The position numbers and the translations under genes are program-made. The notes under the pieces were generated by a model. It was not told the origin of the DNA and did not search any database. It saw only the letters and a program-made list of their open reading frames with translations. Positions 8,267 to 27,510 of a stretch of DNA of 64,000 nucleotides are shown here, one piece after another (the first letter of the stretch is position 1; every line of letters begins with the position of its first letter). The DNA is taken from the IMG/VR virus record IMGVR_UViG_3300033463_000027, positions 64,001 through 128,000 of that record; one strand, 5' to 3'. Origin of the DNA: a virus. Lineage: Duplodnaviria > Caudoviricetes.

Positions 8267-8352
8267 TCTGAAAATAGGGCTTGACTGGAATAATTCAAGC
8301 CCTGATTTGAGGTCATTTAATACGATCTCGGAATGAATTGGAGGGTGATACT

Positions 8353-8673: not shown

Positions 8674-8761
8674 ACTCTTGAATAATAGGCATGATCTCGG
8701 AATCATGCCTTGAATTGAGGGGCTTAAACTCTCGGAATTTGAATTGAAAGGTGGAATCTCT

Positions 8762-9085
8762 ATGACTACAAGAGAAAAGAGGTATGCACTTCTTAGCAAT
8801 GCGCGGAATAATCTTGACATTGCTATGCGGGAACTGTCGGAAGCTATCAACACATACAAGCAGACTGCGGAAATATACAAGCAATACCGCATGAATGGTG
8901 ACTATGTGTGCAAGGAATTTTGTGTAAATGGCAAATTCTACACACTGGAAAAAGCACATGACGAAATGGATGCGGCTGATTCTGCGGTAAGGTCTGCGGA
9001 AAATCAAATAACAGATTACAAATTCGGAAGTGATGCGGAAATTGAAGCGTGGTATACTATGCTTGAAATAGCGCACATAATTTGA
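8762..9085 (+). CDS. Hypothetical early phage protein
   Basis: RBS AAAGGTGG. Confidence 0.65.
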   Translation: MTTREKRYALLSNARNNLDIAMRELSEAINTYKQTAEIYKQYRMNGDYVCKEFCVNGKFYTLEKAHDEMDAADSAVRSAENQITDYKFGSDAEIEAWYTMLEIAHII

Positions 9086-9161
9086 TGAAAAGCCGAAACA
9101 GGGGACTCAAAATCCTCTGTCGTGCGGAATGGTATTCAGTGCCTGACGATGACAGCTATCA
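9083..9161 (+). ncRNA. Hammerhead ribozyme (type II permutation), one stem II mismatch
   Basis: GCC-GAAA-CAGGGG..CCTCTG-TC-GTGC..GTGC-CTGACGA-T-GAC. Predicted cleavage after GTC at 9121. Confidence 0.7.
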
Positions 9162-9192
9162 TTGAATGTTTATTGAATTGGGAGGAATCACA

Positions 9193-9516
9193 ATGTATAC
9201 AAGCATAAGAAATTATCCGTCAATGTACAATACAGACGGAAAACCGGATATACTTTACTCTATCCGTATGCGTGAAAAGTACGGAATCAACACGGTATTC
9301 AACTATGAGGATATAGAAAACGCTGGTTTTGAAGTCCTCGACTGCGTGGAAGGCTGTCTGTGTGATAGTGTGATCTGTGAAGATGATAACGGAAACGTGG
9401 TTATCTTTGCGGAAACTGCACTGAATGAATGGTGTAGTGCTCTTATCCCTATCAGAAAAAGCAGTAATGCGGAAACGTGGGATTATTGGTACAATGAGTT
9501 TGTACCTGAATCGTAA
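9193..9516 (+). CDS. Acidic hypothetical protein
   Basis: GGGAGG RBS; D/E-rich. Confidence 0.65.
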   Translation: MYTSIRNYPSMYNTDGKPDILYSIRMREKYGINTVFNYEDIENAGFEVLDCVEGCLCDSVICEDDNGNVVIFAETALNEWCSALIPIRKSSNAETWDYWYNEFVPES

Positions 9517-9617
9517 TAACGATCTCTACTATTTACCTTCAATTCAATTCGATATCAAGCCGCTCGGAATCCGGGCGGTAAGATATCGGAATATGAACGA
9601 ATTGTAAAAGTTTACAG

Positions 9618-9689
9618 TGTACCTAATTTTCGCTTGACATAAGCGGAAATTGGTAGTATACTATATACAACATTATACGGTGTACCTAA
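9618..9689 (+). promoter_or_regulatory. sigmaA promoter with TGTACCTAA operators
   Basis: TGTACCTAA-N7-TTGACA-N17-TATACT, second box at 9681. Confidence 0.8.
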
Positions 9690-9938
9690 ACGGAAGGAGT
9701 GTGTAAACATGAAAGTCAATCTGCGGAAAACTGGCGTTAAGGTACTGCTGAAAAAGCGGTATGTCAACTTAGTAAAAAACGGCAGACAGTACATATATAG
9801 ATGATTTGCCGGAAAAGTCCTATACTATGTGTAGGGCAAAAGAAAAGAGACAACAAAACTATTCGCAAACGGACAGAAAAGCCGATAGAACGCGCTCTGA
9901 TGCGGTTTGCGGCTATGATTGAAATGGAGGTTTTATGT

Positions 9939-10508
9939 ATGGGTAAAAGGAATGAAATATACGACGATTACGCTTTTTTATCGTCGGAATATGAAAAGGA
10001 AACTCGGCAATATCTCTTTGATGAATACGGAGAGTTTGAAGATTGGGAATCTCCGGAAGATATTTCAGATACTCGTGTTTTTGATGAAATAGACGTGCAA
10101 AGAGGATTTATCTTTGAAGATGAAATGGAAATGATTAAATCTTTCTTTGAGGATAAGCAGCTTTTGGTCTGCGGTTCATGCGGCTTATGGTATGGACGTG
10201 TTGACGGAGGAAAAGTTATAACTGTTGATAAACTTTCGGATTTATGGAATGACTGCGGTATGTGTTATATACACCTGTATGACGAAAACGGTCATTTCTT
10301 TGTGGAAGTCGCTCACCATGACGGAACTAACTGCTTTGAAGTCAAGATATTGACGGAAAAAGGATATGAAATTTATTCTGATTGGGAGTATGATTATCGG
10401 TATAGTGAACTTTCGGAGAGAGAAATACATGAAAAGCTCTGGAATGATAGTCACTATACACATATTCCTCATTATGCAAGGGAAGTATTCGGAGTAAAAA
10501 CAAGGTAA
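9939..10508 (+). CDS. Acidic hypothetical phage protein
   Basis: ATG after GGAGG; GLWYGR and HHDGTN motifs. Confidence 0.7.
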   Translation: MGKRNEIYDDYAFLSSEYEKETRQYLFDEYGEFEDWESPEDISDTRVFDEIDVQRGFIFEDEMEMIKSFFEDKQLLVCGSCGLWYGRVDGGKVITVDKLSDLWNDCGMCYIHLYDENGHFFVEVAHHDGTNCFEVKILTEKGYEIYSDWEYDYRYSELSEREIHEKLWNDSHYTHIPHYAREVFGVKTR

Positions 10509-10512
10509 AGGA

Positions 10513-10842
10513 GTGTTGAAAATGCCTAAAGCTATTCTTTATCCTTACGGAAGCGCAACGGATAGAAAAATACTTGACAAGATAGAAGCAGATAGAGAAG
10601 CGGCAAAAACTGGTGACTTTCTTCCTGAGTATTGGTTAAGTGGTTGTACAATTTGTACTCGGAATACACATGGAGTTTATCATGTGTACGTACCTGAAAA
10701 ATCACCTTTTGACGGAAAAATTTTAAGAGATTACAGGATAAACAAATACGGTCATATGGTAGATACAAACTTGTTTTACAAAATTTCTACAAAACAGGAT
10801 TTAATTATGTGGTGTGAGGAACGTGGAATCACGTTTGAATGA
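10513..10842 (+). CDS. Hypothetical protein
   Basis: ORF track; AAGGAG RBS. Confidence 0.65.
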   Translation: MLKMPKAILYPYGSATDRKILDKIEADREAAKTGDFLPEYWLSGCTICTRNTHGVYHVYVPEKSPFDGKILRDYRINKYGHMVDTNLFYKISTKQDLIMWCEERGITFE

Positions 10843-10850
10843 TCTAATAA

Positions 10851-10923
10851 GGCTCTGCGGCTTGCCTTTAAAAGTCGCACCTTATCACTCTAAACAGTGC
10901 ATGAACTGTGCGGAGTGAACCAT
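10851..10923 (+). ncRNA. Repeated pseudoknot + GCAUGA-loop + ACCAU motif, copy A
   Basis: GGC..GCGGCTT-GCC..AAGTCGC then TCACTC..ACAGT-gcatga-ACTGT..GAGTGA-ACCAT. Confidence 0.65.
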
Positions 10924-10975
10924 ATTTACATAAGAAACGGAAATGGTTTTTTGACTTGAAAAGGAGTGTTGAGCA

Positions 10976-11242
10976 ATGGAGAATATAAAGAATACCTGTG
11001 CTATTGACAAGATAATTGCGGAATTATCGTTACAAGATTATCATGCACGAATTGAGCGTTTGACAAGTAATCAGAAAAAAGCTATAAGAAACGGTAAGAA
11101 AAACTTATCTGACTTCGGCGGTTATTCACTCGGACAGAAAACAATGGAAGCCATCAATGTAAAACGTGATTATCTTAACGGAAATATCACAGAAAACGAG
11201 TATAAAGCATGGTGCCTTCGTTATAATTTAGCTTACGCCTAA
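10976..11242 (+). CDS. Hypothetical protein
   Basis: ORF track; AAGGAG RBS. Confidence 0.65.
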   Translation: MENIKNTCAIDKIIAELSLQDYHARIERLTSNQKKAIRNGKKNLSDFGGYSLGQKTMEAINVKRDYLNGNITENEYKAWCLRYNLAYA

Positions 11243-11258
11243 CCTTCCAATTCAAAAC

Positions 11259-11327
11259 GGCTTGCGGATTGCCGAAAAATCCGCATATATCGGCACAATA
11301 TCCGCATGAGGATAAAGTGCTGACCAT
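11259..11327 (+). ncRNA. GCAUGA-loop motif, copy B
   Basis: GGC..GCGGATT-GCC..AATCCGC then TCGGCAC..TATCC-gcatga-GGATA..GTGCTG-ACCAT. Confidence 0.65.
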
Positions 11328-11371
11328 TTAACAAACATACGGAAACGGAATTTGAAAAGGAGCGTTGAACT

Positions 11372-11698
11372 ATGCGAAAAGTCACTTTTGAAATTGACGA
11401 TAAGGCATTTTTCAAAAAGTCGTTCATGAAAGAGAATGGATTGACTGAGGAAAAAGTCAATGAAATTCTTGCGGATATGGATAGTTTTATCTGTACTTAT
11501 TCGCTTATTGGTGGACGTATGCCGGATAGATACGAACTTACAGACAGAAACGGACAGAAGATGAACATTAACGATCTGAACGGATATCAAAAAGGTGTTG
11601 TACTCAATGACTGTTATGCTTACTATGTAGGCGGCAAATATCACGGAGATGCAAAAGAACCTTGTGGAGTTATCCGCATAACTGAAACGGAGGTATAA
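11372..11698 (+). CDS. Hypothetical protein
   Basis: ORF track; AAGGAG RBS. Confidence 0.65.
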   Translation: MRKVTFEIDDKAFFKKSFMKENGLTEEKVNEILADMDSFICTYSLIGGRMPDRYELTDRNGQKMNINDLNGYQKGVVLNDCYAYYVGGKYHGDAKEPCGVIRITETEV

Positions 11699-11700
11699 CT

Positions 11701-12618
11701 ATGAATGAACTGAAAAACTTGCTTGCTCTTAGCAGGAACGCATTACAGGTGTGCTATTATCAGCTTAACATGGATTTTGAAAAGCCCTTTACAGTTATAG
11801 AGGGCAATGGTAAATTTACCGCAAACTCTATCGGTAAAAGGATTTTTGAAGTCACTGGAATGACACGGAAAAATTGCAAGGCTGCACTTTATCTGCGGAA
11901 TGATAATAAGTACAGAAGCGATTACACAAAACTGTATTTTGTGAAATACGATTGTGATTTTGAGTCTGTTGATACGCTTAGTAAAGTTATTTTTAAACAT
12001 AAGTACATAGATGATTTTTGGAGAAAATCAGACTTTGAAGCTGAACGCAAGAAAGACACGGCTCATTGGTGGATAGTTGTACAGAATAAACAGTATCTTC
12101 GTGAAAAGAAAGAGTTCCAGCCTATTGACTTCGGAGAAAGATACAATAGAGTTTATTCAGAACATTACGCTATACTAGGCAATGAACGGAAACGTATCAA
12201 GTACAGTCCGTGCTTTTATCCTTCGCGCAGACCAACGGAGAAAGATATTCTTGATAAATCAGGATATATCCGTTGGGAAAATGTTATTACATATCAGAGG
12301 AAAGCAAAAGCCTTGAAAGCAGAAAGAGAAAAGGCTGCGGCAAGTCTCTTTGATTGTTCGGAAGCAACTGAACGAATCGGAAAAGCTCTACTTGACATTC
12401 GTGATGCCTTGTCTAAAGCCCTAAAGAATAATGTTAGGGCAGGAAAAATAAGAAACGTTTTGCACGATCTGGAATGGGTCGAATCCGACTATAACAACCA
12501 TTGTTCAAAAATTGCAAAAGTCACCTATTCTTCGATTGAGGATATCAACACTAATATTGATAACATGATGGCAAGAATCAACAGAATGAACACAGATATT
12601 GCGGAATTTGATAAATGA
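11701..12618 (+). CDS. Hypothetical protein with C-terminal coiled coil
   Basis: 305 aa; GGAGG RBS. Confidence 0.7.
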   Translation: MNELKNLLALSRNALQVCYYQLNMDFEKPFTVIEGNGKFTANSIGKRIFEVTGMTRKNCKAALYLRNDNKYRSDYTKLYFVKYDCDFESVDTLSKVIFKHKYIDDFWRKSDFEAERKKDTAHWWIVVQNKQYLREKKEFQPIDFGERYNRVYSEHYAILGNERKRIKYSPCFYPSRRPTEKDILDKSGYIRWENVITYQRKAKALKAEREKAAASLFDCSEATERIGKALLDIRDALSKALKNNVRAGKIRNVLHDLEWVESDYNNHCSKIAKVTYSSIEDINTNIDNMMARINRMNTDIAEFDK

Positions 12619-12620
12619 CA

Positions 12621-12666
12621 TACAATATATAGTGTTTACAGAACAGAAACGGCACAAAATATGGTG
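12621..12666. promoter_or_regulatory. Tandem NrdR-box-like pair
   Basis: TACAATATATAGTG (12621) and CACAAAATATGGTG (12653), 32 bp apart. Confidence 0.6.
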
Positions 12667-12724
12667 TTGGAATCCGAATAAAAGGTAAGTTTTAGCGGCT
12701 GTCCTATCGGCTTGACGGGGAGAA

Positions 12725-13414
12725 ATGGAGTATATCATGAATAAGAACAAATTAGAAATAATACTTGAAAAGCACAATAAATGGTGGAATAATGAGGAAG
12801 GAGGAGAAAGAGCTGACTTGTGCGGAGCTGACTTGCGCGAAGCTGACTTGCGCGGAGCTAACTTGCGCGAAGCTGACTTGCGCGGAGCTAACTTGTGCGG
12901 AGCTAACTTGTGCGGAGCTAACTTGCGCGGAGCTAACTTGCGCGGAGCTAACTTGTGCGGAGCTAACTTGCGCGGAGCTAACTTGTGCGGAGCTAACTTG
13001 CGCGGAGCTAACTTGCGCGGAGCTGACTTGCGCGAAGCTGACTTGCGCGGAGCTAATCTATCTATGGCAGAAAATTTATTGTCTGCTATTGCTTACATTA
13101 AGGACAACTTTGAAACGACCAATGAAGGAATTGTTGTTTATAAAACTTTCGGTGGGTCTTATAATCCTCCTGAAAAATGGGTTATACAGTCTGGCTCGAT
13201 ATTATCGGAGAACTGCAATATGAATCGCACTGATTTATGCGGCTGTGGAATCAATGTTGCACCTATTGAATGGGTAAAAAATAATTATTGTGGTGATATA
13301 TGGAAATGCCTTATCCGTTGGGAGTGGCTTTGTGGAGTTTGTGTACCTTATAATACAGATGGAAAAATAAGGGCTGAAATGGTGGAGCTCATTGAAATAG
13401 TTGATAGAGATTAA
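12725..13414 (+). CDS. Pentapeptide repeat protein
   Basis: About 16 A(D/N)L(R/C)(G/E) repeats encoded by 15-nt tandem repeats at about 12811-13060. Confidence 0.9.
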
Positions 13415-13420
13415 TAATAA

Positions 13421-13522
13421 AGGCTTTCCGGATTGAACCTTAATCAATCCGCTACAAACAAAGCGGAGTAAATCTCCGCTTACATACACGATCTATCCGC
13501 ATGAGGATTGAAAGTGTACCAT
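13421..13522 (+). ncRNA. GCAUGA-loop motif, copy C (with an extra hairpin)
   Basis: AGG..CGGATTGA-aCCT..TCAATCCG then TACAC..ATCC-gcatga-GGAT..GTGT-ACCAT. Confidence 0.6.
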
Positions 13523-13565
13523 ATTCAGAAGTAAACGGAAATGTAACACAATAGGAGGAATAACT

Positions 13566-15440
13566 ATGACAGTAATTCAGCGTATCAAACAGGCGGTCAA
13601 TAATCTTGACTGTGAAACGGATAACATTGACAAAATAATAGCTCTTGCCTATATGATTGGCAAGGAAAAAGCAACTCGTGAAGTATCTAACGCATACAAT
13701 AAATTACTTGCTGAACAGCGGGAACGTGCGGAGAAATGCCGTTATCACAATATGGCTACGGAAATAGTTGGTGACAAGGAATACATATACTTCGGAGATT
13801 ATGACGGGGCTATGTGTTATACTTTCGGAAGTGATGAAACGGAGGTGTGACCCACAATGACAATAGCAGAATTTAAAAACCACAACAAAGAAAACAATAT
13901 GCCTTACGAATGGATAGGTCAAGGCTATGGCTACAAAGTAACCGATACCGCATGGGACGATCTGAACGATGACGATATTATTTATATCCCCGAGTATGGC
14001 TACGACAAGAAAGATGACGGAACTGTTTTTGTAAGCAGAAATGATGCGTATAGCAAGAGTGATTTCATTCAGCTAATAAGGGAACTGGGCGATAGATACC
14101 TTGATATTGGTAGACAGGTGGAAGTCAAGCGAATGGCTGCGAAACTCTTTGAAGCTGTTGACTGGCAATATCCGGAGAGTTTATTGAATGAGGGATTTTT
14201 TGAGGAATAAAAGGAGTGAGTGAGAATGAATAATTTATTAGTTATACCAAAATGTGAAAATCATGGTGTGCAGCTTGAATATGTCATACCTCGGACTTAT
14301 GAACAGCGTTTTGTAGGTGCTATGTATTGCTGTCCTTACTGTAATAGATCGCGGCTTTATCCTTCAAAGGAAGCGCAAAAACAATTGGAGGATATGATAA
14401 ACAAAAACAAATAAAACAGTTGTTTTGTGAAAGGAGTATTGGTTTATGAAAGATATTATCAGACGTTTGCTTATCAAAGCAAGCGAAGAAAAGGACTTAG
14501 AACTTGCGGAAATAGCAAGTGATTTGATGGGAGAGCTTGCCAGCACATACAATGCTCCCTCAAATTGGCGTGATATTCTTGACGAACTGCATGAGGAATT
14601 TATAGATAATGAATGGCTCATGAACTCGGTGTATGAGTTTGCAATGTATTGAAAGAAGTGTTGATCTATGAAAAGAGTAACATTATGTAGCGCACCTACA
14701 AAGGAGGAACTTGAAAAGGTTATCAATGAATACTTTTGTAGCACCAATTATTTCATAGCTGCGGATAATCAAACTGTTATCAATGTAAAAACAGGTCTGA
14801 CTTGGGGTAAGAATAACGGATTTGAGGTAAGACAGACAAAGCGCAGATGGGCTTTTGTTAGGTATGTGGATAGTGTTTGAAAGGAGTGCTGACTATGAGT
14901 TACACAAGGCAAATCGGAGAAATGGTTATAACTGTAGTATGCGCTGCAAATCCTGAACAGACATATAACGATCACTATGAGGATATCAAGCGTATGATTG
15001 AAGCTGACGGATATATCCCTGTTACCTCTATGGATAATCTGATTAAGAACATTGTTCTTATGTTTGATTGTGATGACAACTATGGGGAGTATGACAAAGA
15101 AACAGGGTGCGGTGGTTACGGAGAAGCGTTCACTATGACAGAGTGCAGAAACTATGTGCTTGATAGTGGTGGATATGCGGAGTTTGACTATTATTGTTGA
15201 AAGGTGGAATAAGATATGAAAAACTTTTATTGCGCTATCAGTCAGCAGATCGGAGACTATCGCAATGCTTATGTTGGACAGTTTTCAAGTAGCGATAATC
15301 TCTTGAAATTCTGTGAACGCAGACAGCGGGAAGGCGCACAGGTTGTCATGGTGTGCGAATCCAAAAAGCAAGCAGAACGCATTGTTGAGGAATGGAATGA
15401 AACCTATAAATCCGATGGAACTCATTTACTTACTTCTTAA
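13566..15440 (+). CDS. Run of seven small hypothetical genes (13566-13850, 13857-14210, 14220-14414 Zn-ribbon, 14446-14652, 14668-14880, 14877-15200, 15216-15440)
   Basis: Closely packed same-strand ORFs, most with a clear RBS; several acidic. Confidence 0.65.
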
Positions 15441-15447
15441 CTTACAT

Positions 15448-15517
15448 AAGCCCACTGCGGGGCTTTGTACCGCAGACAACACGGAATGAAGCGCATGAAC
15501 TTCGGACTGTGAACCAT
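15448..15517 (+). ncRNA. GCAUGA-loop motif, copy D
   Basis: AAGCC..CTGCGG-GGCTT..CCGCAG (pseudoknot strands swapped) then CACGG..GAAG-cgcatgaa-CTTC..CTGTG-aACCAT. Confidence 0.6.
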
Positions 15518-15558
15518 TTACATTTAACTGTTTACTTATGAAAGGACGTTGATTACTT

Positions 15559-16791
15559 ATGAAAACAACAATGACTATTACTGCGGAGAACTTTAAGAGG
15601 GCTGTCAAGGCGGCTGTAAGCTGCTGCGTATATGCGACTGTCCCTGCCCTTGGTGATGTGTACATGGATATTGGCAAGAATGGGGTGTTTATAGCTTGCG
15701 ACCTTGAACAGTATGTACGCTGTTCGTTTAATCCAGTGAAATACTCAGATGATACAATCGGAGTAAGTGTAGACTTTTCTATGTTGAAAAAGATTGCAGA
15801 CATAAAAGGAGAAAACATCACGTTTACCTATGACGAAAGCGCAGAGCATGAACTTAAAATCTCCAATGGTAAGAAGTGTATAACTCTTGCTTGTACGCTC
15901 GTGGATAATTCGGCGGGAAGTAACGACTTTAACAGAGAAACTTATTCTATTCCTTTTGAAATGGATAGAAAAGAAATTATGCAACTTGACAGCGAGGAAC
16001 TTCTTATTACTATTAAAAACACATCTGTGTTCACTTGTAAGACAGATATTAAGCCTATTCTGAAAGGCTATCATTTCAATGGACACGATAACGTCATTGA
16101 AACTATTGACGGGTATCATTGTGTACGCAAAGACTGGAAAACAGGTGTGCTTAACAGTGACTACTTCGAGACTGTTGGCGAAAAACTCATAAATATTAAG
16201 AACATTTTTAATAAGAATGACGGAATGATCACTATATATGGTGCTGAAAGTATGGAGAGTAAGCTGGACTTTGGTAAATACAAGTATACCTTGTTCAGTC
16301 TTACGGAAGGTGATATGAAAATAGAGTATGCCGTAAGAAATTTGCAAGGTGAGTTTTGTAACGTCAAGAACTCATATCCTACTACATTCCAAACATACGG
16401 AACTGCTAAAGCTGGCTCTTTGATAGAGCTTTGCAAGGAGTATTCTAAGTTTATCAGTGAAAAAGCTCCTAATCCTATCATTTTTCATCAGGTCGATGAT
16501 GTTGTGTATGCAAGTTTAAGGACAGTATCTATTAAATTCTGTGAACCTACAGAAATAAAAATAGATGGTGCTCCGCTTTCGGCAGGATATAAGAACGCAT
16601 TTCTTATGGAAGGATTGAGCGTTTTTGACAAGAATGAAACGATTAACATGAAAACAAATGGAAATTTATACCCCTTGCTTATTGAGAATAACGAATATCA
16701 TGTACTTGTTCTTCCAATCAGATTAGACAATGACATTATATCTGATGTTGAAAAAGATATTGCATTACTTAATAGCAAGGAGGCGGTCTGA
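15559..16791 (+). CDS. DNA polymerase III beta-clamp (DnaN)-like protein
   Basis: 410 aa; ACDLE, KPILKGYHF, ETIDGYH and C-terminal LVLPIRL match DnaN motifs. Confidence 0.7.
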   Translation: MKTTMTITAENFKRAVKAAVSCCVYATVPALGDVYMDIGKNGVFIACDLEQYVRCSFNPVKYSDDTIGVSVDFSMLKKIADIKGENITFTYDESAEHELKISNGKKCITLACTLVDNSAGSNDFNRETYSIPFEMDRKEIMQLDSEELLITIKNTSVFTCKTDIKPILKGYHFNGHDNVIETIDGYHCVRKDWKTGVLNSDYFETVGEKLINIKNIFNKNDGMITIYGAESMESKLDFGKYKYTLFSLTEGDMKIEYAVRNLQGEFCNVKNSYPTTFQTYGTAKAGSLIELCKEYSKFISEKAPNPIIFHQVDDVVYASLRTVSIKFCEPTEIKIDGAPLSAGYKNAFLMEGLSVFDKNETINMKTNGNLYPLLIENNEYHVLVLPIRLDNDIISDVEKDIALLNSKEAV

Positions 16792-16929
16792 ATGTTAGGA
16801 ATAGCTATTGTAGTTATATACTATATCGGCTGTCTGATTGCAGACACCTTCCGAAAGTACAAGTAAATAGATAGGGGGAACCGAGCGGCAGCGGAATGGT
16901 CTGCCGCATGAATGAGGGAGGAATGATTT

Positions 16930-17280
16930 ATGAATACTGTTATACATTTCGCAGGAAGTTGTGTTGTGCATGACGATACAAAAGCATTACAGGAAACGGA
17001 ATACGCTCTGTATCACACGGGGCTTTTTGAAAATAATAACGTAAGTATTATTGAGGTTACGTGTGGAGAACTTGCACAGAATCGGATTGTAACTCAGACT
17101 CGCCGTGAAGCTGACCTATTGGGAAATGGAATCCTTGCCCTTATCAAACAGACAGATGAAGCTATATGTGCTTTAAATGGAAACTGTGCAAAGGCAGCAA
17201 TTGAGATAGCAGATTATCGGAGAGAGTTAATTGAGTTGCTTGATAAGATTAGGAGTTTGGAAAAGGAAAGTGACGAATAA
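16930..17280 (+). CDS. Hypothetical protein
   Basis: GGGAGG RBS. Confidence 0.6.
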   Translation: MNTVIHFAGSCVVHDDTKALQETEYALYHTGLFENNNVSIIEVTCGELAQNRIVTQTRREADLLGNGILALIKQTDEAICALNGNCAKAAIEIADYRRELIELLDKIRSLEKESDE

Positions 17281-17336
17281 TCCCTTGACAATCAAGGGAT
17301 AATATGTTAAAATTAACATCAAAGGAGTGTTGTTTT

Positions 17337-17642
17337 ATGCGCAAATGGAAATACAAGTTGTTCACAGGCAAGGCTTTGAGAGAAGCTATAAGAGAGGATA
17401 GTAATGAAGCTACTTTAGAAGCGTTAAGGACTTGCTATAGGGAAATTCATAGGGCAATGCCTGATTGGTATGACGAAGATGATCTGGAAAACGACTGTGC
17501 AGAGATTGATAATCAGTTAGATAACTGTAACAATTATGTTGATTATGATATGACTGAGGACGATGTTCAGAATGAAATTAACTATTTACTCAGAGACTTT
17601 TATGACTTCTGTGATTGTAATGGTATTTGGGTAGGACTGTAA
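17337..17642 (+). CDS. Highly acidic small protein (paralog of pseudogene 27112-27418)
   Basis: MRKWKYKLFTGKALREAI...FYDFCDCNGIWVGL; AAGGAG RBS. Confidence 0.7.
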   Translation: MRKWKYKLFTGKALREAIREDSNEATLEALRTCYREIHRAMPDWYDEDDLENDCAEIDNQLDNCNNYVDYDMTEDDVQNEINYLLRDFYDFCDCNGIWVGL

Positions 17643-17656
17643 AGGAGTGAATAGAA

Positions 17657-19338
17657 ATGAAAGTTAAAATAGGAACTATTCTTTTTGACGAATGTAGCGG
17701 AAATTATTTCAGAGTTGACAGCGAATATAAAGAGTTGCAGCATGGTTATTGGTGTACTCAGGTAGAGCTTGACGATGATGGAGAAATTATTTCCGAAGAA
17801 TCAAGCGGGTGGAGAACAAAGAAAGAAGTCGAAAGCTGTATTGATAATTCTTAAAAGGGTGGTTTTATGAAAACTTATGTAAAGATAGAAAACGTAGACG
17901 AGCGTTTTGATACTATGCAGGACGCTACTCAGTATGCAGAGGACAATTTCGATGACGAGATTGAATCCTTTGAAATGGACGTATACTCGGAAAGCGGAAA
18001 GCATATTGATAATCAGACTGTCGAGCGGAATCCATATAGTAATCAGTTTGTTTACGCTGCTTGGGGTTTTGGCGTGAGTAAATGGAATGATGACGAATAT
18101 GATTGGTATGGAGATGTGTTTGATACTCTGGATCAGCTTCTTGAAAACGAGGATTATCTTTCTGCAAAAGCAAAAGGTTATGGACTGCGCGTGGAGAAGT
18201 ATACTCAGACTGTTGACGAGAATATTGGAGATGTGGTAGACATCTATTCGGAGGACGATTAACTATGGCTATATCTCAAATAGAAATTATCTGTGAACAT
18301 TGCGGAAGAACATTCAAGCACAGGCACAAATGTTATAACCGTGATGCTGCGGAATCATACACGGAATGGGCGAAAGAGAATGTAACCATTTGCCCTGATT
18401 GTTACCGAGAAATTCAGAGAGAAATAGAACGCAAACGTATTGAAGAGCTTACAAAAGATATGCCAGTTACCGCAGAGCTTCAAGGCAGTGAAAAACAGGT
18501 AAGATGGGCGAACGATATTCGCAAGAAAGCTCTTAGTTTTGTTGCCGATAGAAAACCTAAACAGGCATTTTGGAATGCTGTAAATTCAAAAACTGATGCT
18601 GTGTGGTGGATAGATCATTGTGATAAGTTAGATAACATTTATGACTTTGCAAGATTATTGGAGGAAAAATAAATGGATATTTTAGAACGAATTAAAGAGC
18701 GTGGATATGAAGTAATGAAAGCTGACTATGATGATGTAGACGATCCTTATGCGTTTAATTATGCGAGAGTTGTCATCAAAACCCCTGCCGGAAATATAAA
18801 GCCTATTGTTGGAACGCTCGATAGACTTTTATACATAAAAGATAAAACATTACAGACTTCTCAGAGAGAACTTATTGAAGCTATTTATCACCCCGATAAA
18901 AATGGTTGGTGTCTTTTGGAGAATGGATTTGACCTTAAAAGCAAATCTGTTTTTGAAAAAGCAGAAGAGCAGCTTGGATTGAAAAGTTATAAAACTGAGG
19001 AAGAGGGAGCTTCAATCGAAAATGAAAGCACTGTAAAATTCCTCACTCACTTTGTCAATGGTGAAGCATATCTAACTGTCATTGATGGAGAATATGTAGT
19101 ACAGCTATTTCATCAGGCAGACATTGATTGTTTTATCACAGACACGTTTGTGTTCGATCATGAGCCTACTTTGGAAGAATTTCATGCAGCTTACGATCTT
19201 ATGCAATTTAAGGTTTGCCTTATGTGTAAGAGAATTAAAGAAATTGATGGTGAAATGTATTGGTTTGAACAATTAAGAAGATATAAAGACCTACTCGGAA
19301 ACGCATATTCTATGCTTGTCGAGATAACTAAAAATTAA
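17657..19338 (+). CDS. Four hypothetical genes (17657-17854, 17867-18262 very acidic, 18265-18672 Zn-finger plus LxGSEKQVxWAxxIR motif, 18673-19338)
   Basis: Contiguous ORFs with RBSs. Confidence 0.65.
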
Positions 19339-19442
19339 ATTGATATATATAACTTTTGACCTTCCACTCAGCGGAAATAAATCTGTTGAGTGGAATTTGT
19401 TCACCCACATTTCAAATGTGAATATTGTGTAAAATTTTGCGC

Positions 19443-19515
19443 TGTACCCAAAACGCTATTGACAACAAGAGCGAAAGGATATATAATAGATAATAGAAAT
19501 ATACAATGTACCTAA
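19443..19515 (+). promoter_or_regulatory. sigmaA promoter with TGTACCYAA operators
   Basis: TGTACCCAA-N7-TTGACA-N17-TATAAT, second box at 19507. Confidence 0.8.
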
Positions 19516-19535
19516 TCAGAGAGGTGAAAGCAAAA

Positions 19536-20099
19536 ATGACTTATGAAGTAGTTATACAGGAAACCTTACAGCGTTCAATCTGTGTTGAAGCGGAGACAGA
19601 ACAAGAAGCTGTAGAGAAGGTGGACGAAATGGTATCAAGCGGAGAATTGGTACTTAACGCTGATGACTTTACAGACAGAAAGTATAAGGTCGCTCCCATG
19701 TATGCGGCGAGTGTAGTTTGCCCGAACAGAAAAGATGAATGGGTAAGACGTATTCTCGCTATCGGAACAGGGGAGGATATGACATTGCAATTAAACCGAA
19801 ATACTTTTATGTGGGTGGAGCGATTTATAGAAAATGAAACTGACATACTCTTAGTCGAGATCGACAAGGGGTCTATTGAGAACTGTGACGGAGAAGATAT
19901 AACAGTCTTTAATAAAGTTAAGGAAACGTATAAGCTCGATTTGATGGACATAAGAACGTGTGTAGACACGTTACTTGATTTGTTTGATTATTATGTCAAA
20001 CCCACCACAAGTCCCGCCGATGTGGTCAGGGGAGTTTTTGGAATGGTAGTTGCAATTGGGTTGTTGTCAACATTTTCGGTGCTGATGTCACTATTATGA
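19536..20099 (+). CDS. DpnD/PcfM-like N-terminal domain protein with C-terminal TM helix
   Basis: MTYEVVIQETLQRSICVEAETEQEAVEKV...VLNADDF. Confidence 0.65.
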   Translation: MTYEVVIQETLQRSICVEAETEQEAVEKVDEMVSSGELVLNADDFTDRKYKVAPMYAASVVCPNRKDEWVRRILAIGTGEDMTLQLNRNTFMWVERFIENETDILLVEIDKGSIENCDGEDITVFNKVKETYKLDLMDIRTCVDTLLDLFDYYVKPTTSPADVVRGVFGMVVAIGLLSTFSVLMSLL

Positions 20100-20317
20100 A
20101 AGAAAGGAGTGAACAAACCATGCAGAATGACATTGATGCTGTTATCAGACAGGTTTTGGTGCAAGCAGTCAATGGCAAGGTATCAGATTTCTATGCTTTG
20201 GTAACTGCGGAGTACGAGCCTGATATGTACACTCGTGAAGATGACTATTTTGTGGCGAGAAAAAGAATACAGCATAAGGCAGAAACCGTAAGGTTTGTTC
20301 ACCTCTATGCGGAGTAA
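20096..20317 (+). CDS. Hypothetical protein
   Basis: ORF track; AAGGAG RBS before an internal ATG. Confidence 0.55.
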   Translation: MKERSEQTMQNDIDAVIRQVLVQAVNGKVSDFYALVTAEYEPDMYTREDDYFVARKRIQHKAETVRFVHLYAE

Positions 20318-20369
20318 ACAAACGCAAAGTGCGTTTGACATATACTATTATCTAAAGGAGAAATGTCCT

Positions 20370-21593
20370 ATGAACACATTAACAACAGCAAATGTAAGCG
20401 GAATGTCACTTCCCATTATGGAAGTAAACGGAACAAGAGTGTTGACTACAGCACAGTTAGCGGAGTGCTATGGAACAACGGAGCGCAGGATATCTGAAAA
20501 CTTTAATGCCAACAAAGATCGGTATGAAAAAAACAAACATTATGTTGCTCTCGAAGGCGAAGAGAAACGGAATTTTCTCAACCATACGAAAATTCCGTAT
20601 GGTTCAAAAGCCGCAAAATTTTATCTCTGGACAGAACGCGGAGCTTTACTTCATGCAAAGTCTCTTGGAACTAATAAGGCATGGGAAGTATACGATATAT
20701 TGGTGGACAATTATTTTACCTCTGCTAAGATAGTTACCATCACGCCTACCGATGCTGCTCGAATACTTGCAGAGAATAATCTAAACAACAGAAAAATCAA
20801 TCAAGCGAACGTTCGGAAGTACGCCGACGATATGCTACTTGGTAAGTTTGAACTTAACGGAGATACTATTCGCTTCTACGCCGATGGAACCTTGGCAGAT
20901 GGACAGCATAGACTTATGGCTTGTGTGCTTTCAGGAGTTCCTTTTAAAACCTATGTAGTTAAGGGTTTGGAGAAAAAGGTTCTTCCCACTATTGACTGCG
21001 GCAAGCCCCGGAATATGGTTGAAACTCTGAACATGATAGGTTGTGGAGTAAATAAGATGATAGTTCCTGCGATGAACCTTTACTTTAATAATAGAGCGAG
21101 TCTTACTGCTAATCAGGTACAAGTCCTTTGGGATAAGTATTCGGATAAACTTGAAAAACTATGTACTATATTAAAGGGAAGTCACCACGATCACATTCTC
21201 TCACAGAAAGACGTAAGGGCATACTTTATGCACTTACTGTTAGCGGAGAACTGGACAGAAGATGATGTTCAAACCTTTGTCAACGGATTAAAGACCAAAC
21301 CTAATTGCGCAACCAATTTCGATTATACTTGTTATAATTTCAGACGTTGGTACGACCGCAGGATTCATAGAAAGATTACCGATGGCAAGAAGTGTAAGAA
21401 CAATCCCAAGTCTTTGATGACTATTGAAGGATTATGTACTGTTGCGGATTCGTATATACAAGACAAGCAGTATAACAAGTTTGCTGGAACTAAGTTGACA
21501 CGCGCCAATGGAGTTCTTGAAAGAGGACAAGCGTTAGCTCAGATACAGTTTCAGTTAATGGAATCCTCTAACTTAACATTGACCTCTACTTAA
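20370..21593 (+). CDS. ORF6N antirepressor domain fused to a ParB/Srx-like (DGQHRL) domain
   Basis: VLTTAQLAECYGT..LWTERGALLHAKSL followed by N.NNR, NGDTI and DGQHRL. Confidence 0.75.
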   Translation: MNTLTTANVSGMSLPIMEVNGTRVLTTAQLAECYGTTERRISENFNANKDRYEKNKHYVALEGEEKRNFLNHTKIPYGSKAAKFYLWTERGALLHAKSLGTNKAWEVYDILVDNYFTSAKIVTITPTDAARILAENNLNNRKINQANVRKYADDMLLGKFELNGDTIRFYADGTLADGQHRLMACVLSGVPFKTYVVKGLEKKVLPTIDCGKPRNMVETLNMIGCGVNKMIVPAMNLYFNNRASLTANQVQVLWDKYSDKLEKLCTILKGSHHDHILSQKDVRAYFMHLLLAENWTEDDVQTFVNGLKTKPNCATNFDYTCYNFRRWYDRRIHRKITDGKKCKNNPKSLMTIEGLCTVADSYIQDKQYNKFAGTKLTRANGVLERGQALAQIQFQLMESSNLTLTST

Positions 21594-21657
21594 TTGTTCA
21601 TAGGAAGGGCTTTCGCGGCTGTGCCTAACAACCGCGATTTATAATCGCTTAGAGTGC

Positions 21658-21945
21658 GTCAATAACTCACTGCTTATAGAAGCAGGAGCTTGTAAATGCT
21701 CAAATTGACTACCCTAAGTTCTTCAAGAACTACGTTATGCAAGAATTGTATAAGTTCTTTTATACTAAATAGTTACCCGTGAGCGTTATGCCTAACTTGC
21801 GGCTCTAAGGCAAATGGTTAAATAGTTCTGTGGAGTAGGAACAGTGCTGTTCGCAGTAAAACCTTGCAATAACATTGGGGAAGGCATTTAACAGCTTTGT
21901 ATGTGCTGTCTTACAGAGTAGAACATACAATTTGACTGAAAGGAG
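21658..21945 (+). ncRNA. IscB omegaRNA scaffold
   Basis: About 290 nt structured leader (GTCAA..TTGAC stem, CTACGTT, AACATTGG.GAAGG) upstream of iscB. Confidence 0.8.
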
Positions 21946-23237
21946 TGTTTTTTGGTGGTATATGTGATAAACAAAAACGGACAGCCGCTTATGCCAACCG
22001 AGAGACACGGTAAAGTGAGACGATTGCTTAAAATAGGAAAGGCTAAAGTAATCAAACGCTGTCCGTTTACTATTCAGCTTCTTTATGCTACGACTGATTT
22101 TGTACAAGAAGTCACTTTGGGAGTAGATAGTGGGAGTAAGCATATTGGAGTATCAGCGACAACAAAAGACAAAGTTTTGTATGAAGCTGATATAGAGCTT
22201 AGAAACGATATTGTCAAGCTGTTATCTGCAAGAAGAGAGGCAAGACGTACAAGGCGCAATAGAAAAACTCGTTACAGACAGGCTCGGTTTAACAACCGCA
22301 GTAAGCCCGATGGTTGGCTTGCCCCGTCAGTGCAACACAAGGTCGATGCTCATTTGACTGTCGTTCGTAAAGTGTATGAGATTCTTCCAATTGCAAAAAT
22401 CATAGTCGAGGTTGCTTCTTTTGATATTCAGAAAATCAAAAATCCATATATTAAGGGAGAAGAATATCAGCAAGGTGAACAGCTTGATTTCTGGAACGTA
22501 AGAGAGTATGTGCTTTTCAGAGATAGTCATGTGTGTCAGTGTTGCAAGGGCAAATCAAAAGATAATATTCTCAATGTACATCACATAGAATCACGGCAGA
22601 CAGGCGGGGATGCTCCCAATAACCTTATCACTCTCTGCGAGACCTGCCATTTAGGGTATCATAAAGGGACTGTGAAACTTCCAAAGACCATAAAGCGGGG
22701 GATGTCTTTTAGAGATGCAGCTTTCATGGGAATAATGCGATGGGCGTTTTACAATAAACTTAAATATATATATCCGAACGTTAATCTGACTTACGGATAT
22801 ATCACCAAAAACGCCCGTATTAAAAACACTCTTTCCAAAAGCCACTTTACAGATGCAAGGTGCATAAGCGGAAATCCGAAAGCTGTATCCGATGATGTAG
22901 TTTTCTATCAGAAAAAAGCCAGATGTCATAACAGACAGATACATAAATACAACATACTCAAGGGCGGGTTGAAAAAGAAAAACCAAGCACCGTATGAAAT
23001 GTTCGGTTTTAGGTTGTTTGACAGGGTAAAGTATCTTGGAAAAGAGTACTTTATCTTTGGTAGGAGAGCATCAGGATATTTTGATATAAGAGACTTACAA
23101 GGAAATAAGGTTAACAAAGGGAGTATTTCCTATAAAAAGTTGACCTTTATCGAACGGGCTAAAACTTATTTAACTGAAAGGAGGAAGGAGCATTCCTCCC
23201 CGACTTTTGAAGTTGGGGTATCCTGCTCCTATTTTAG
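21658..23237 (+). mobile_element. IS200/IS605-family IscB element
   Basis: Begins GTCAATAAC, ends in a CCCCGACTT/AAGTTGGGG hairpin. Flanks rejoin as AGAGTGC|ATGAAC. Confidence 0.8.
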
Positions 23238-23241
23238 ATGA
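21952..23241 (+). CDS. iscB: RNA-guided endonuclease IscB
   Basis: PLMP N-terminus, RuvC-I GVDSG, Arg-rich bridge helix, RuvC-II VEVA, HNH (HHI..GG..NLITLC..CH), RuvC-III HFTDA. Confidence 0.93.
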   Translation: MVVYVINKNGQPLMPTERHGKVRRLLKIGKAKVIKRCPFTIQLLYATTDFVQEVTLGVDSGSKHIGVSATTKDKVLYEADIELRNDIVKLLSARREARRTRRNRKTRYRQARFNNRSKPDGWLAPSVQHKVDAHLTVVRKVYEILPIAKIIVEVASFDIQKIKNPYIKGEEYQQGEQLDFWNVREYVLFRDSHVCQCCKGKSKDNILNVHHIESRQTGGDAPNNLITLCETCHLGYHKGTVKLPKTIKRGMSFRDAAFMGIMRWAFYNKLKYIYPNVNLTYGYITKNARIKNTLSKSHFTDARCISGNPKAVSDDVVFYQKKARCHNRQIHKYNILKGGLKKKNQAPYEMFGFRLFDRVKYLGKEYFIFGRRASGYFDIRDLQGNKVNKGSISYKKLTFIERAKTYLTERRKEHSSPTFEVGVSCSYFR

Positions 23242-23331
23242 ACTTAAAGTGATTACCATATAGTAAACGTGCGTATTATAGCGGTTCAGCGGAGTTATAA
23301 ATCCGCGCATTGTCTTGAAAGGAGTATAAAT

Positions 23332-24297
23332 ATGGATAACACAGCAAGAAAGCTAACTATCAGCGGAAACAACATTGATATTTCCGTAGTCAAGTCCAAG
23401 AAAAAGGACAGAATACAATCTAAGATTGTAACCGAGGACGAGTTCGCGGAGATTTATCGCTCTGCTGATGCGATAACTTCTGCAAAGGACATAGAAAATA
23501 TGTGTCTTACGCTCTATAAAAGGGGTTATGTAGATAGCATGGTTCTCTTTATCGTTGGAACCAATATTGGCTATCGTCCTGTCGATTTACAAGCGTGGAG
23601 ATGGGAGCAGATTACCGATGAAAACGGAAACATTCTTCGGAGATTTGCTATGAACGAACACAAGACAAGCAAGATGACAGTAGTTAATTTCAATGAGACT
23701 GTTGTTAAACTTCTTACATGGTATAGGGATTATAAAATGTCTCAACCCAAGTTTATGTGGGAGAATTATGTTTTTTCTGTAAGCATAAAAAATGCGGCAA
23801 GAAGTTATGTGTGGTATGATAAAGAAAACGATATTATCTATCACCAAGATAGGAAACATAAACAGTTGGGGCTTGTATATTATCATGAGGGCAAAAATAT
23901 TATTACTTGTCCTGCGTGTGAAGTTATCGGAAACGAGAAGTATCTTAAATTGCAAAAGCCCATTACGACTGAAACTGCCAGTAACAATTTTATTGAAGCT
24001 GCGGAGAAATGCGGAATTGAGGGACATTTTTCGTCATATACAATGCGGCAAACGTTCAGCTTTTGGTTTAGAAAAACCTTAAAAGAGGACGAAACTCTTG
24101 CAAATGTAGCTGATGAATACTTCTCGACCATGCTGCTGAGTGGATATTTTCAGCATAGCAGTTTAAAGGTCACGCAAAAACACTATATGCGAGATCAAGT
24201 TGCGTTATTCAGACAGATTGTAAACAAGATGAACCTTGCTAAAGATTTTGTGGATTGTCTGGTCGAAAAGGATAATGCAGTACAGATGTGTTTATAA
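23332..24297 (+). CDS. Tyrosine recombinase (YopP/XerC-like)
   Basis: GYRPVDL (R), HKTSK (K), SYTMRQTF (HxxR with H>Y), QHSS (H), QKHY (Y). Confidence 0.8.
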   Translation: MDNTARKLTISGNNIDISVVKSKKKDRIQSKIVTEDEFAEIYRSADAITSAKDIENMCLTLYKRGYVDSMVLFIVGTNIGYRPVDLQAWRWEQITDENGNILRRFAMNEHKTSKMTVVNFNETVVKLLTWYRDYKMSQPKFMWENYVFSVSIKNAARSYVWYDKENDIIYHQDRKHKQLGLVYYHEGKNIITCPACEVIGNEKYLKLQKPITTETASNNFIEAAEKCGIEGHFSSYTMRQTFSFWFRKTLKEDETLANVADEYFSTMLLSGYFQHSSLKVTQKHYMRDQVALFRQIVNKMNLAKDFVDCLVEKDNAVQMCL

Positions 24298-24358
24298 TAA
24301 GGTAGTTACCGAGGAAACTCGGAAAAATATATTAACTAAATTTTAGGAGGAATTTTTT

Positions 24359-24940
24359 ATGAAAACTTTAAAGGTTACTTGGAAAGGCACAAAGACTCTG
24401 ATTATGCACTCTTGCCAGTGCGTTAATCCCCTTAATCCGATTCAAAAGGAATTGAAAAAGTACACTTCAAAAAGAACCAAAACTGATGAAGATTTACAGA
24501 GAATTTCTGATCTTGAATGGGAAGCTGGGGCTTATTGGAAAGAAGGTATGGGACTTTATATCCCCGGAGAAAATGTGATAGCAACCATTATTAATGGTGC
24601 AAAACTCTTCAAGAAGGGTACTGATGTTCAAAAGTATGTTTCTGTTCCTAATGTGCATATTCCGTTTAATTACGGAGAAAATCTCACTAAGGAAGAACTG
24701 ATTGCTGATAAAGATTATCGTGATGTAAGACCTATGGTCGTTGGTAAGGCAAAGGTTATAAGAACAAGACCAAGATTCGATCAGTGGAATATTACTTTTA
24801 ACCTTGAATATGAAGAGGATAAGATTGACCGTGATGTTGTCATTCTTGCATTAGAAAATGCAGGAAAGTATGTGGGGCTTTGCGATAGTCGCAACTATGG
24901 CTATGGGCGATTTGTCGTAAAAGCAGAAGAGTTGGATTGA
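24359..24940 (+). CDS. Stand-alone Cas7/RAMP-like protein
   Basis: N-terminal KVTWKGTKTLIMH, LYIPGENVIATI (cf. RAMP IPGSSIKG) and C-terminal glycine-rich loop GLCDSRNYGYGRFVV. AGGAGG RBS. Confidence 0.75.
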   Translation: MKTLKVTWKGTKTLIMHSCQCVNPLNPIQKELKKYTSKRTKTDEDLQRISDLEWEAGAYWKEGMGLYIPGENVIATIINGAKLFKKGTDVQKYVSVPNVHIPFNYGENLTKEELIADKDYRDVRPMVVGKAKVIRTRPRFDQWNITFNLEYEEDKIDRDVVILALENAGKYVGLCDSRNYGYGRFVVKAEELD

Positions 24941-24945
24941 GATAG

Positions 24946-25378
24946 GGATTATATGTTTGGTTCTGTTCTGTTGTGTTTCGTTAGGTTCCGTTCAGTTCAG
25001 TTGCGCTAAGTTATGTATTGTAGGTTGTGTTTTGTTTCGTTAAGTCGAGTTTCGTTGTGTTGTGTTGCGTTAGGTTGGGTATTATAAGTTAAGCTCCGTT
25101 GCGTTGAGTTTAGTTGTGTTAAGTTCAGTTTGGTTGGGATAGGTATTATAAGTTAAGTTAAGATGTATTATGTTGTGTTTAGTCAGGTTGCGTTAAGCTA
25201 AGTTAAGTATTATAAGTTAGGTTCTGTTTCGTTGTATTGAGTTATGTTGGGGTTCGTTTGGTTCGGTTATGTTTGGTTGAGCTAAGTATTATAAGTTGCG
25301 CTATATTAAGTTATGTTGAGTTAGGTCAAGTTGCGTTGCGTTATGTTAAGTTGCGTTGGGTTAAGTCAAGCATTATAG
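24946..25378 (+). repeat. Array of six GTT-NN pentamer units separated by a 9-nt GTATTATAA repeat (putative guide-RNA array)
   Basis: Units 24955-25014 (12 pentamers), 25024-25078 (11), 25088-25142 (11), 25152-25206 (11), 25216-25285 (14), 25295-25369 (15). Delimiters at 24946, 25015, 25079, 25143, 25207, 25286 and 25370. Confidence 0.9.
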
Positions 25379-25413
25379 GCTTTGAAAAAAAATACCAAGA
25401 AAGGAAAATTATT

Positions 25414-25878: not shown

Positions 25879-26075
25879 GGAATTGTTATGATAGTCTATA
25901 CTGTATTTAAAACTCGATGGAATCCCGATAGTAACTATGACGAAACTTTTCTTATAGACATATATTCCAACGAACAAACAGCTATGCAAGAGTGTATTAG
26001 TTATAATAGTAGTCATGATAACAGTGAAAGTTTTTTTGTTTTATGAAGATTATACTGTCAAGGAGGACTAAAAAA

Positions 26076-27418: not shown

Positions 27419-27426
27419 TTAATTGA

Positions 27427-27472: not shown

Positions 27473-27510
27473 TATAAAATACGGATAAAACGAGATTTTT
27501 ATTGTAAGGA

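Follow-up and report, generated by a model that had tools for sequence, protein, structure and literature searches.

A repeated pseudoknot–hairpin RNA between the early genes of an uncultured phage lineage, a candidate intercistronic processing or stability signal

The DNA analysed here, called the window, is a stretch of 64,000 nucleotides (nt) covering bases 64001–128000 of a single-contig phage record (IMG/VR record IMGVR_UViG_3300033463_000027; 139,524 bp, 37% G+C), and our subject is a structured motif that recurs between its genes in five copies, A to E. An initial annotation, made from the letters of the window, had listed these copies, and all five were recovered, starting at about 10849, 11258, 13420, 15448 and 21605, within 1–3 nt of the positions first given. 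Every copy is intergenic and lies on the coding (+) strand inside an operon of the sigma-70 type (Table 1). A promoter scan found sigma-70-like promoters at 9634, 17285 and 19459 only and none at or beside the copies, which rules out the motif itself as a sigma-70 promoter. In all copies the motif starts 5–15 nt after the upstream stop codon; between its tail and the following start codon lie 37–52 nt, except at copy E, which is split and has an extra leader hairpin and where the distance is 72 nt, and the ribosome-binding site lies about 25–40 nt downstream of the tail. Copy A, for example, begins 7 nt past the stop of the open reading frame (ORF) 10513–10842 and ends 52 nt ahead of the ATG at 10976. 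The genes downstream of the copies are unalike, encoding three small proteins without a known family, one clamp-like protein (PHROG 947) and one integrase-like protein. Most early proteins near the copies have no known family, and a scan of 29 nearby proteins revealed neither an RNA-binding nor an RNase domain. The only indications of the host, AAAGGAG-type ribosome-binding sites and the low G+C content, point to a Bacillota-type bacterium.

The module is built of five parts. At its 5' end stands a word of 3–6 nt of the AAGGC type, followed 2–5 nt on by hairpin 1, usually GCGG.../...CCGC, whose loop opens with the complement of the 5' word; word and loop together make up the predicted H-type pseudoknot. 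An A/U-rich linker of 4–7 nt leads to hairpin 2, which is irregular, with an internal loop between its outer and inner stems and GCAUGA as its apical loop, and at its foot the helix passes straight into an ACCAU tail. The pattern GCATGA-N(8–30)-ACCAT occurs four times in the window against 0.69 expected, and none of 100 shuffles contained it at least four times. A covariance model of the motif (R2) matched only the same five places in the whole 139.5-kb genome, all on the + strand, with E values from 1.6e-18 to 8.9e-9, and the next-best match had an E value of 0.4.

Table 1. Positions of the motif copies, their parts and the associated features in the window
Feature	Position	Strand	Details
Sigma-70-type promoter TTGACA-17-TATACT	9634..9662	+	heads the operon with copies A–D
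Copy A	10849..10923	+	74.7 bits, E 1.6e-18; folding z -5.7
Copy A, AAGGC word	10849-10853	+
Copy A, hairpin 1	10857-10878	+	GCCUU in loop
Copy A, hairpin 2	10885-10918	+
Copy A, GCAUGA loop	10899-10904	+
Copy A, ACCAU tail	10919-10923	+
Copy B	11258..11327	+	69.7 bits; folding z -4.5; pseudoknot CGGC:GCCG; hairpin 1 GCGGAUU/AAUCCGC
Copy B, GCAUGA loop	11304-11309	+
Copy B, ACCAU tail	11323-11327	+
Copy C	13420..13522	+	R2 match; folding z -6.3; pseudoknot AAGG:CCUU on hairpin CGGAUUGA/UCAAUCCG
Copy C, GCAUGA loop	13499-13504	+
Copy C, ACCAU tail	13518-13522	+
Copy D	15448..15517	+	54.4 bits; upstream of clamp-like gene 15559-16791; pseudoknot AAGCC:GGCUU (G-C swapped); hairpin 1 CUGCGG/CCGCAG
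Copy D, GCAUGA loop	15493-15498	+
Copy D, ACCAU tail	15513-15517	+
Strong intrinsic terminator	19362-19395	+	closes the operon with copies A–D
Perfect promoter TTGACA-17-TATAAT	19459-19487	+	heads the operon with copy E
Copy E, 5' part	21605..21657	+	pseudoknot hairpin, 5' strand of hairpin 2, loop bases GC
Inserted IS200/IS605-type IscB element (not motif)	21658..23237	+	1,580 bp
Omega RNA (HEARO)	21658-21892	+	first 235 nt of the element; Rfam RF02033
IscB ORF	21952-23241	+	Pfam RRXRR 1.1e-68 and HNH 2.8e-7
Copy E, 3' part	23238..23259	+	loop bases AUGA, 13-nt 3' strand of hairpin 2
Copy E, ACCAU tail	23255-23259	+

Homologues of the clamp-like protein led to 11 metagenomic contigs with DNA, and a sequence pattern led to a complete phage of 140,956 bp (G001), which is syntenic with the phage studied here at about 70% nucleotide identity in conserved genes and carries four copies of the motif. 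The window, the 11 contigs and G001 together supplied 23 distinct copies and a further one truncated where its contig ends. Comparison with these relatives bears on copy C, in which an additional hairpin (AAGCGGAG...CUCCGCUU, about 13461–13481) stands between the pseudoknot hairpin and hairpin 2. This hairpin matches hairpin 1 of other copy types (copy a of contig L001 and copy 3 of G001), a likeness that suggests recombination between copies; the G001 orthologue of copy C has one hairpin 1 only, and its tail reads ACUAU.

The predicted fold was examined from several sides. In a 20-row alignment to the model, 84.4% of pair cells were paired against 67.3% in shuffles (reached by none of 500), paired cells fell to 26–42% when the partners were slid by 1–3 columns, and 13 of the 18 pairs had changes on both sides; these pair statistics are indicative, the alignment having been fitted to the model and one row, the split copy E, having a spurious 3' half. 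Independent single-sequence folding recovered both hairpins, with z scores of -5.7, -4.5, -6.3, -1.9 and -5.3 for the five copies. There were 37 G-U pairs among the 390 predicted stem pairs, and folding was more favourable for the + strand than for the complementary strand in 15 of 19 copies (mean 3.6 kcal/mol), which together argue for RNA, or at least for the + strand, rather than for duplex DNA.

The two strands of the pseudoknot vary together, as AAGGC:GCCUU, CGGC:GCCG, AAGG:CCUU, AAGCC:GGCUU and AAAGCC:GGCUUU. Helices between a flank and its cognate loop have 3–6 Watson-Crick pairs (mean 4.15), while non-cognate combinations between types have a mean of 1.75; this comparison was used in place of a shuffle test of pseudoknot length with G-U pairs allowed, which had no power. 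The strand swap first noticed in copy D is real (AAGCC:GGCUU against AAGGC:GCCUU), copy B adds a second compensatory position (CGGC:GCCG), and orthologues of copy D in six contigs (L001, L002, L004, L006, L216 and L218) also carry compensatory changes. With about two independent compensatory positions in the available sequences, the H-type pseudoknot is supported, not proven. The pair, strand and pseudoknot tests agree with the initial annotation that the stems differ while pairing is kept, and they indicate a covarying structure at the RNA level on the transcribed strand.

In the hairpin half of the module, the apical loop and the single-stranded tail are the only conserved sequences; the stem sequences, the internal loop (from 1x1 to 5x5) and the linker vary freely. 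GCATGA and ACCAT had been called invariant, which holds among the five copies here but not across the 23 distinct copies. Among the latter the loop follows the consensus N-Y-R-U-G-A, being GCAUGA in 19 and otherwise GUAUGA, GCGUGA, UCAUGA or ACAUGA, and the tail follows N-C-C/U-A-U, being ACCAU in 19 and GCCAU, UCCAU, ACUAU and ACCCAU in one copy each. The 3' strand from loop to tail measures 13–14 nt in every intact copy, and this spacing is kept in the distant copy L220 despite an unrelated stem sequence. Because two single-stranded elements are held at a fixed helical distance, the motif appears to be read in trans by a factor that touches both the loop and the tail.

Other uses of these elements were considered and rejected. 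A mini-ORF starting at the loop AUG was ruled out, since its frame and stop are unconserved (the spacing being 13 or 14 nt) and a Shine-Dalgarno sequence is lacking. A pseudoknot in cis between loop and tail (AUG:CAU) was ruled out by its connector of 0–1 nt, which cannot span the 13-layer helix; the nearly continuous helices of E-type copies likewise bear against this pairing, and the GUG and UAU variants of loop and tail would hold it by wobble only. A recoding pseudoknot, for readthrough or frameshifting, was ruled out by the spacer from the stop codon, which varies from 5 to 15 nt. The sole frame read past an upstream stop, that of copy A, meets the next stop after 16 codons.

The initial annotation had recognised no family in the motif, and Rfam 15, including its RAGATH, ribozyme and riboswitch models, indeed gave no match at the gathering score. 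At E ≤ 10 the sole overlap was with DUF2693 (21.9 bits against an 81.3-bit cut-off, E 0.43), which was discarded as chance. A 19-base pattern of the motif hit 7 IMG/VR, 84 GTDB-genome and 105 JGI-metagenome stretches (80 of these 105 being among the matches listed), and the covariance model confirmed only G001 among the 167 pattern stretches scored. In 185,579 species genomes and the JGI metagenomes this pattern gave chance matches only, apart from G001, and patterns specific to single copy types again found G001 only. Searches of GenBank phages with megablast, blastn and tblastn turned up nothing similar, no relatives came from IMG/VR searches seeded with proteins, and in a search for relatives with the pentapeptide protein the matches were swamped by unrelated repeat proteins. 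Since the pattern searches gave only chance matches outside G001, the motif is, as far as can be seen, confined to one uncultured lineage of phages of about 140 kb. Judged by these sequence comparisons, it is a new RNA family of narrow distribution.

As to function, the initial annotation had offered a ribozyme, a processing or antitermination element, or a protein-binding RNA. This list proved too broad for computation to decide either way, and the anatomy favours a processing or stability signal that is recognised in trans. With neither a junction nor an internal loop conserved, a ribozyme is less probable, and so is a switch linked to a terminator, for which both a general terminator and a partner able to sequester the ribosome-binding site are lacking. 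Neither hairpin is followed by a U tract, and the terminator scan lists no motif hairpin on the + strand.

The reading that we favour, at a probability of roughly one in three, is that the motif is a minihelix resembling the acceptor/T-arm of tRNA, with an RCCA end, and that it may serve as an intercistronic processing or stability signal; the candidate enzyme is RNase P. Of the readers of such a geometry, the enzymes that act on tRNA ends are the best known: they gauge the distance between T-loop and NCCA end along the 12-bp acceptor/T-arm, and a helix followed immediately by A-C-C-A is the signature of a minimal RNase P substrate. The motif helix passes into its tail much as a tRNA helix does into the discriminator base and CCA. 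Directly 3' of the motif helix, the single-stranded bases are ACCA in 19 of the 23 copies and GCCA in one, the others being UCCA (with Y, not R, at the first position), ACUA and ACCCA in one copy each. RNase P cleaves hairpin models of the acceptor/T-arm, makes use of pairing between RCCA and its own RNA, and processes the phage M3 and C4 RNAs as well as intercistronic sites in polycistronic operon mRNAs (PMC11143913). A pseudoknot substrate of RNase P requires a 3' RCCA (PMC12710915), and plant mitochondrial t-elements are described as tRNA-like signals for mRNA ends (PMC1920247).

On the tRNA-like reading, the module would be a cis-acting structured RNA, transcribed inside long early or middle phage operons, and a trans-acting factor would read its loop and tail jointly, as tRNA-end enzymes read the acceptor/T-arm and the NCCA end. 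Host RNase P, or another structure-guided endonuclease, would cut within the A/U linker, next to the base of hairpin 2. This would leave the upstream cistron with the pseudoknot hairpin at its end, which would block 3' exonucleases, and the downstream cistron would open, about 40 nt before its start codon, with a hairpin that would block 5'-end-dependent decay; both new types of end would protect against the exonucleases of Bacillota-type hosts. The conserved block would double as a recombination joint for the swapping of early genes.

Several properties of the motif weigh against a tRNA-like identity. The N-Y-R-U-G-A loop does not resemble a T-loop (there is no UUCRA), and the tRNA model in Rfam gave no match over the motif at E ≤ 10. 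The helix, although constant in length, has 13–14 layers, including an internal loop of 1x1 to 5x5, not 12 regular pairs, and its first pair is seldom G-C. The most invariant bases of the tail are the A and U at positions 4–5, which RNase P does not need, while CUA replaces CCA in one copy and another has ACCCAU. The phage's own six tRNA genes have no encoded CCA, so CCA-dependent recognition may be weak in the host; a gene for a CCA-adding enzyme (PF01743) is absent from both complete genomes searched. Finally, recognition by RNase P as such does not account for the pseudoknot.

Loop, tail and ruler are accounted for equally well by a protein operator, a possible explanation that we rate below the tRNA-like reading and consider unlikely. 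A sequence-specific RNA-binding protein of phage or host would contact both the loop (YRUGA) and the tail (CCAU) across the helix of 13 layers and would control how the downstream cistron is translated, degraded or elongated in transcription, as at a nut or boxB site or a translational operator. Sequence conservation limited to the loop and the tail at a fixed spacing is typical of protein sites, the same site recurs at several operon positions as in a regulon, and the partner could be among the neighbouring early proteins, which are mostly of no known family. However, no RNA-binding domain turned up in the 29 proteins mentioned above, the role of the pseudoknot is left unexplained, and simple occlusion is unlikely because the site ends 25–40 nt upstream of the Shine-Dalgarno sequence.

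The pseudoknot has a more obvious place in a passive block, which we nevertheless regard as improbable. Pseudoknot and hairpin would stop 5'-to-3' exonucleases of the RNase J1 type and 3'-to-5' exonucleases without specific cleavage, giving the flanking cistrons different half-lives. A compact H-type pseudoknot right after the stop codon, with stable helices next to it, and the position of the copies inside long operons would suit such a block, but generic hairpins would suffice for it, and the conserved loop and tail with their strict spacing of 13–14 nt would go unexplained.

Lower still, and in our estimate quite improbable, stands a factor-independent RNA for processive antitermination, like HK022 put or Bacillus EAR, which as nascent transcript would modify RNA polymerase and let it pass the terminators of the long operon. 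The EAR element is likewise intergenic within an operon, and here two adjacent stem-loops with a pseudoknot are found in long operons, with copies recurring along about 12 kb. In copy A, and also in the G001 copy corresponding to B, an AAAUGGU downstream of the tail could base-pair with ACCAU, but the ACCAU:AUGGU option is missing in most copies. Moreover, terminator-like sites inside the operons are few (12 on both strands against 9.1 expected), five copies exceed the usage of put-type systems, and Rfam gave no EAR or put-like match. Regarding the pairing option itself, at 10919–10950 the ACCAUAUUU tail of copy A can pair with the downstream GAAAUGGU, which is followed by U6, so as to resemble a weak terminator; in the G001 counterpart of copy B the pairing ACCAUUU:AAAUGGU would be perfect, but no U run follows it.

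To a DNA-level or single-stranded DNA element, such as a miniature palindrome of the IS200/IS605 type, a target of an HUH or tyrosine recombinase or a mere gene-shuffling linker, its hairpins forming in single-stranded DNA, we give the same small chance as to antitermination. The presence of the motif differs between relatives, hairpin modules have been exchanged between copies, the blocks are far more conserved than the flanking genes, and an IS200/IS605-type element landed in a hairpin loop. The covariation of the pseudoknot and the G-U-rich stems, however, fit RNA, and every copy points in the direction of transcription and keeps a fixed distance to the start codon that follows. The 5' flanks share no word and no common tetranucleotide of the target-adjacent kind (TAM), the ends of the IscB element are on reading unlike the motif, and R2 has no match at the Y1 transposase locus of G001. 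For an IS200/IS605-derived miniature element (PATE) in particular, neither the ends, nor the target tetranucleotide, nor a Y1 transposase in the genome was found.

Slightly less probable again is the idea that minihelix-ACCA RNAs, released at each copy by host tRNA-end enzymes (an RNase P cut, then 3' trimming to ACCA), could act as acceptor-end decoys that soak up host immune effectors directed at the CCA end of tRNA; several would be present per transcript, and CapRel-, HepT- or MenT-type toxins would be the targets. A new small self-cleaving ribozyme is the least credible of the alternatives, for although its size, pseudoknot, multiple copies and phage setting resemble pistol, hatchet and twister loci, and the absence of a match to known classes would make it a new one, neither the internal loop (1x1 to 5x5) nor the linker keeps a constant sequence or size, no junction resembles a catalytic core, and the conserved hairpin loop and 5-nt tail cannot meet in cis across the rigid 13-layer helix of E-type copies.

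A repeated, structured intercistronic RNA in phage early operons has precedents. Known repeats include the PeSL 'mobile regulatory cassettes' of T4-type phages and the SAS/ESAS repeats of cluster K mycobacteriophages. Like the motif, these are oriented intergenic stem-loop blocks that recur in variable early regions at gene-shuffling joints and are better conserved than the genes beside them; a PeSL contains an early promoter, whereas the motif copies have no associated promoter, and neither kind has the covarying pseudoknot or the loop-to-tail ruler of the motif. RNase III processing sites lie between the early genes of phage T7 and Bacillus phage SP82. They share with the motif several related irregular hairpins with internal loops between early genes of one operon, which set mRNA ends and stability, but they need a helix about twice that of the motif and have no conserved single-stranded loop or tail and no pseudoknot; SP82 is mentioned in PMC4838370. 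The RNase P substrates (hairpin models, P1/P7 C4 RNA, phi80 M3 RNA and operon mRNAs; PMC11143913, PMC12710915) have in common with the motif a hairpin of roughly one turn followed by single-stranded A-C-C-A, an A/U-rich 5' leader, a phage and polycistronic setting and an H-type pseudoknot beside RCCA. The motif differs from them in its YRUGA loop, in its 13–14 layers with an internal loop, and in a tail whose A and U are conserved above its first base. Plant mitochondrial t-elements and the tRNA punctuation of mitochondrial transcripts (PMC1920247) likewise involve tRNA-like stem-loops, between protein genes or next to them, that set 5' and 3' mRNA ends; t-elements are recognisable tRNA remnants with T-arm sequences, whereas the motif has no tRNA similarity and has a pseudoknot.

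Copy E had been noted as split, and this is correct; the cause, absent from the initial annotation, is the insertion of an IscB/omega-RNA element. Alignment with the intact orthologue on contig L002 (8155–8231), which matches the 5' part of copy E up to ...AGUGC, places the insertion point at GC|ATGA inside the loop of hairpin 2, without a target duplication. Elements of the IS200/IS605 type are expected to insert without one. The omega RNA matches RF02033 over its full length (model positions 1–211; 108.6 bits against a cut-off of 83, E 1.9e-21), and the TGA stop of the IscB ORF is part of the target loop ATGA. When its two parts are rejoined on paper, hairpin 2 of copy E forms 8+4 base pairs on either side of a 1x1 mismatch, again 13 layers. 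The uninterrupted site is present in L001, L002 and L004, and a sibling contig of 139,322 bp has the same gene order, IscB included. No Y1 transposase gene was found in this genome, while G001 carries one at 48249–48611; the IscB/omega-RNA element is non-autonomous. The 5' flank due to supply the omega-RNA guide is the 5' half of copy E itself. The likeness to HEARO/omega RNA with IscB concerns this insertion only; the motif is its target site and is itself unrelated.

Further signals were seen in the same region. From 8000 to 28000 in the window (72–92 kb of the genome), CGGA in the form D-CGGA-R is much enriched on the + strand only: it stands there 171 times and on the complementary strand 36 times, whereas its frequency elsewhere in the genome would predict 23. 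The longer word CGGAA has 38 occurrences within the 4 kb of 8001–12000, compared with 0–5 per 4 kb outside 8001–28000. Because CGGA is found in all three codon phases and in intergenic leaders, it is a signal at the nucleic-acid level. It is contained in hairpin 1 of the motif (GCGGA...) and in a leader box, ACGGAAA, that lies 10–20 nt after ACCAU in copies A, B and C, and a link between the CGGA signal and the motif is possible. At 8320–8745, the leader word (gat)CUCGGAAU repeats just before ribosome-binding sites, at about 8327, 8697 and 8732, and one occurrence falls within the loop of a hairpin at 8689–8711. The six tRNA genes form a cluster at 36948–38174 (Leu-CAA, Gln, Pro, Lys, Leu-UAA and Thr); 2 nt after tRNA-Thr, the last of them, stands AACCAUAAAAC, with a ribosome-binding site about 35 nt later, an arrangement that resembles the motif tail and leader and may be due to chance.

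Between related phages, the motif marks the joints at which early genes are exchanged. Motif and leader are 87–92% identical between this phage and G001 while the flanking genes have no nucleotide similarity, the block of copy B being 88% identical; copy D with its leader is 75–96% identical, whereas the adjacent clamp gene reaches 68–69% along its full length and 73% in the first 600 nt. Presence also differs at orthologous sites, copy E being missing from L006 and copy D from L003, L005 and L007. The leader of the integrase-like gene has a small hairpin of its own at 23289–23306 (GCGGAGUUAUAAAUCCGC), which the terminator scan lists on the + strand and which is shared with L006 (3170–3215), where the motif is absent; motif and leader are therefore separable modules. 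The behaviour as a recombination joint most plausibly follows from the conservation of a regulatory block, as in the PeSL cassettes of T4-type phages.

The landing of the IscB/omega-RNA element in a hairpin loop is thus recorded together with its natural target sequence, the intact orthologous empty site. The motif itself is a small, clean RNA family of about 70 nt, covarying and with a strict ruler, which makes it an easy subject in vitro. Punctuation by minihelices is known in principle from mitochondria and from isolated RNase P substrates, not as a repeated signal that organises phage operons; if the tRNA-like reading is true, the motif would be the first phage case of mRNA punctuation by tRNA-like minihelices.

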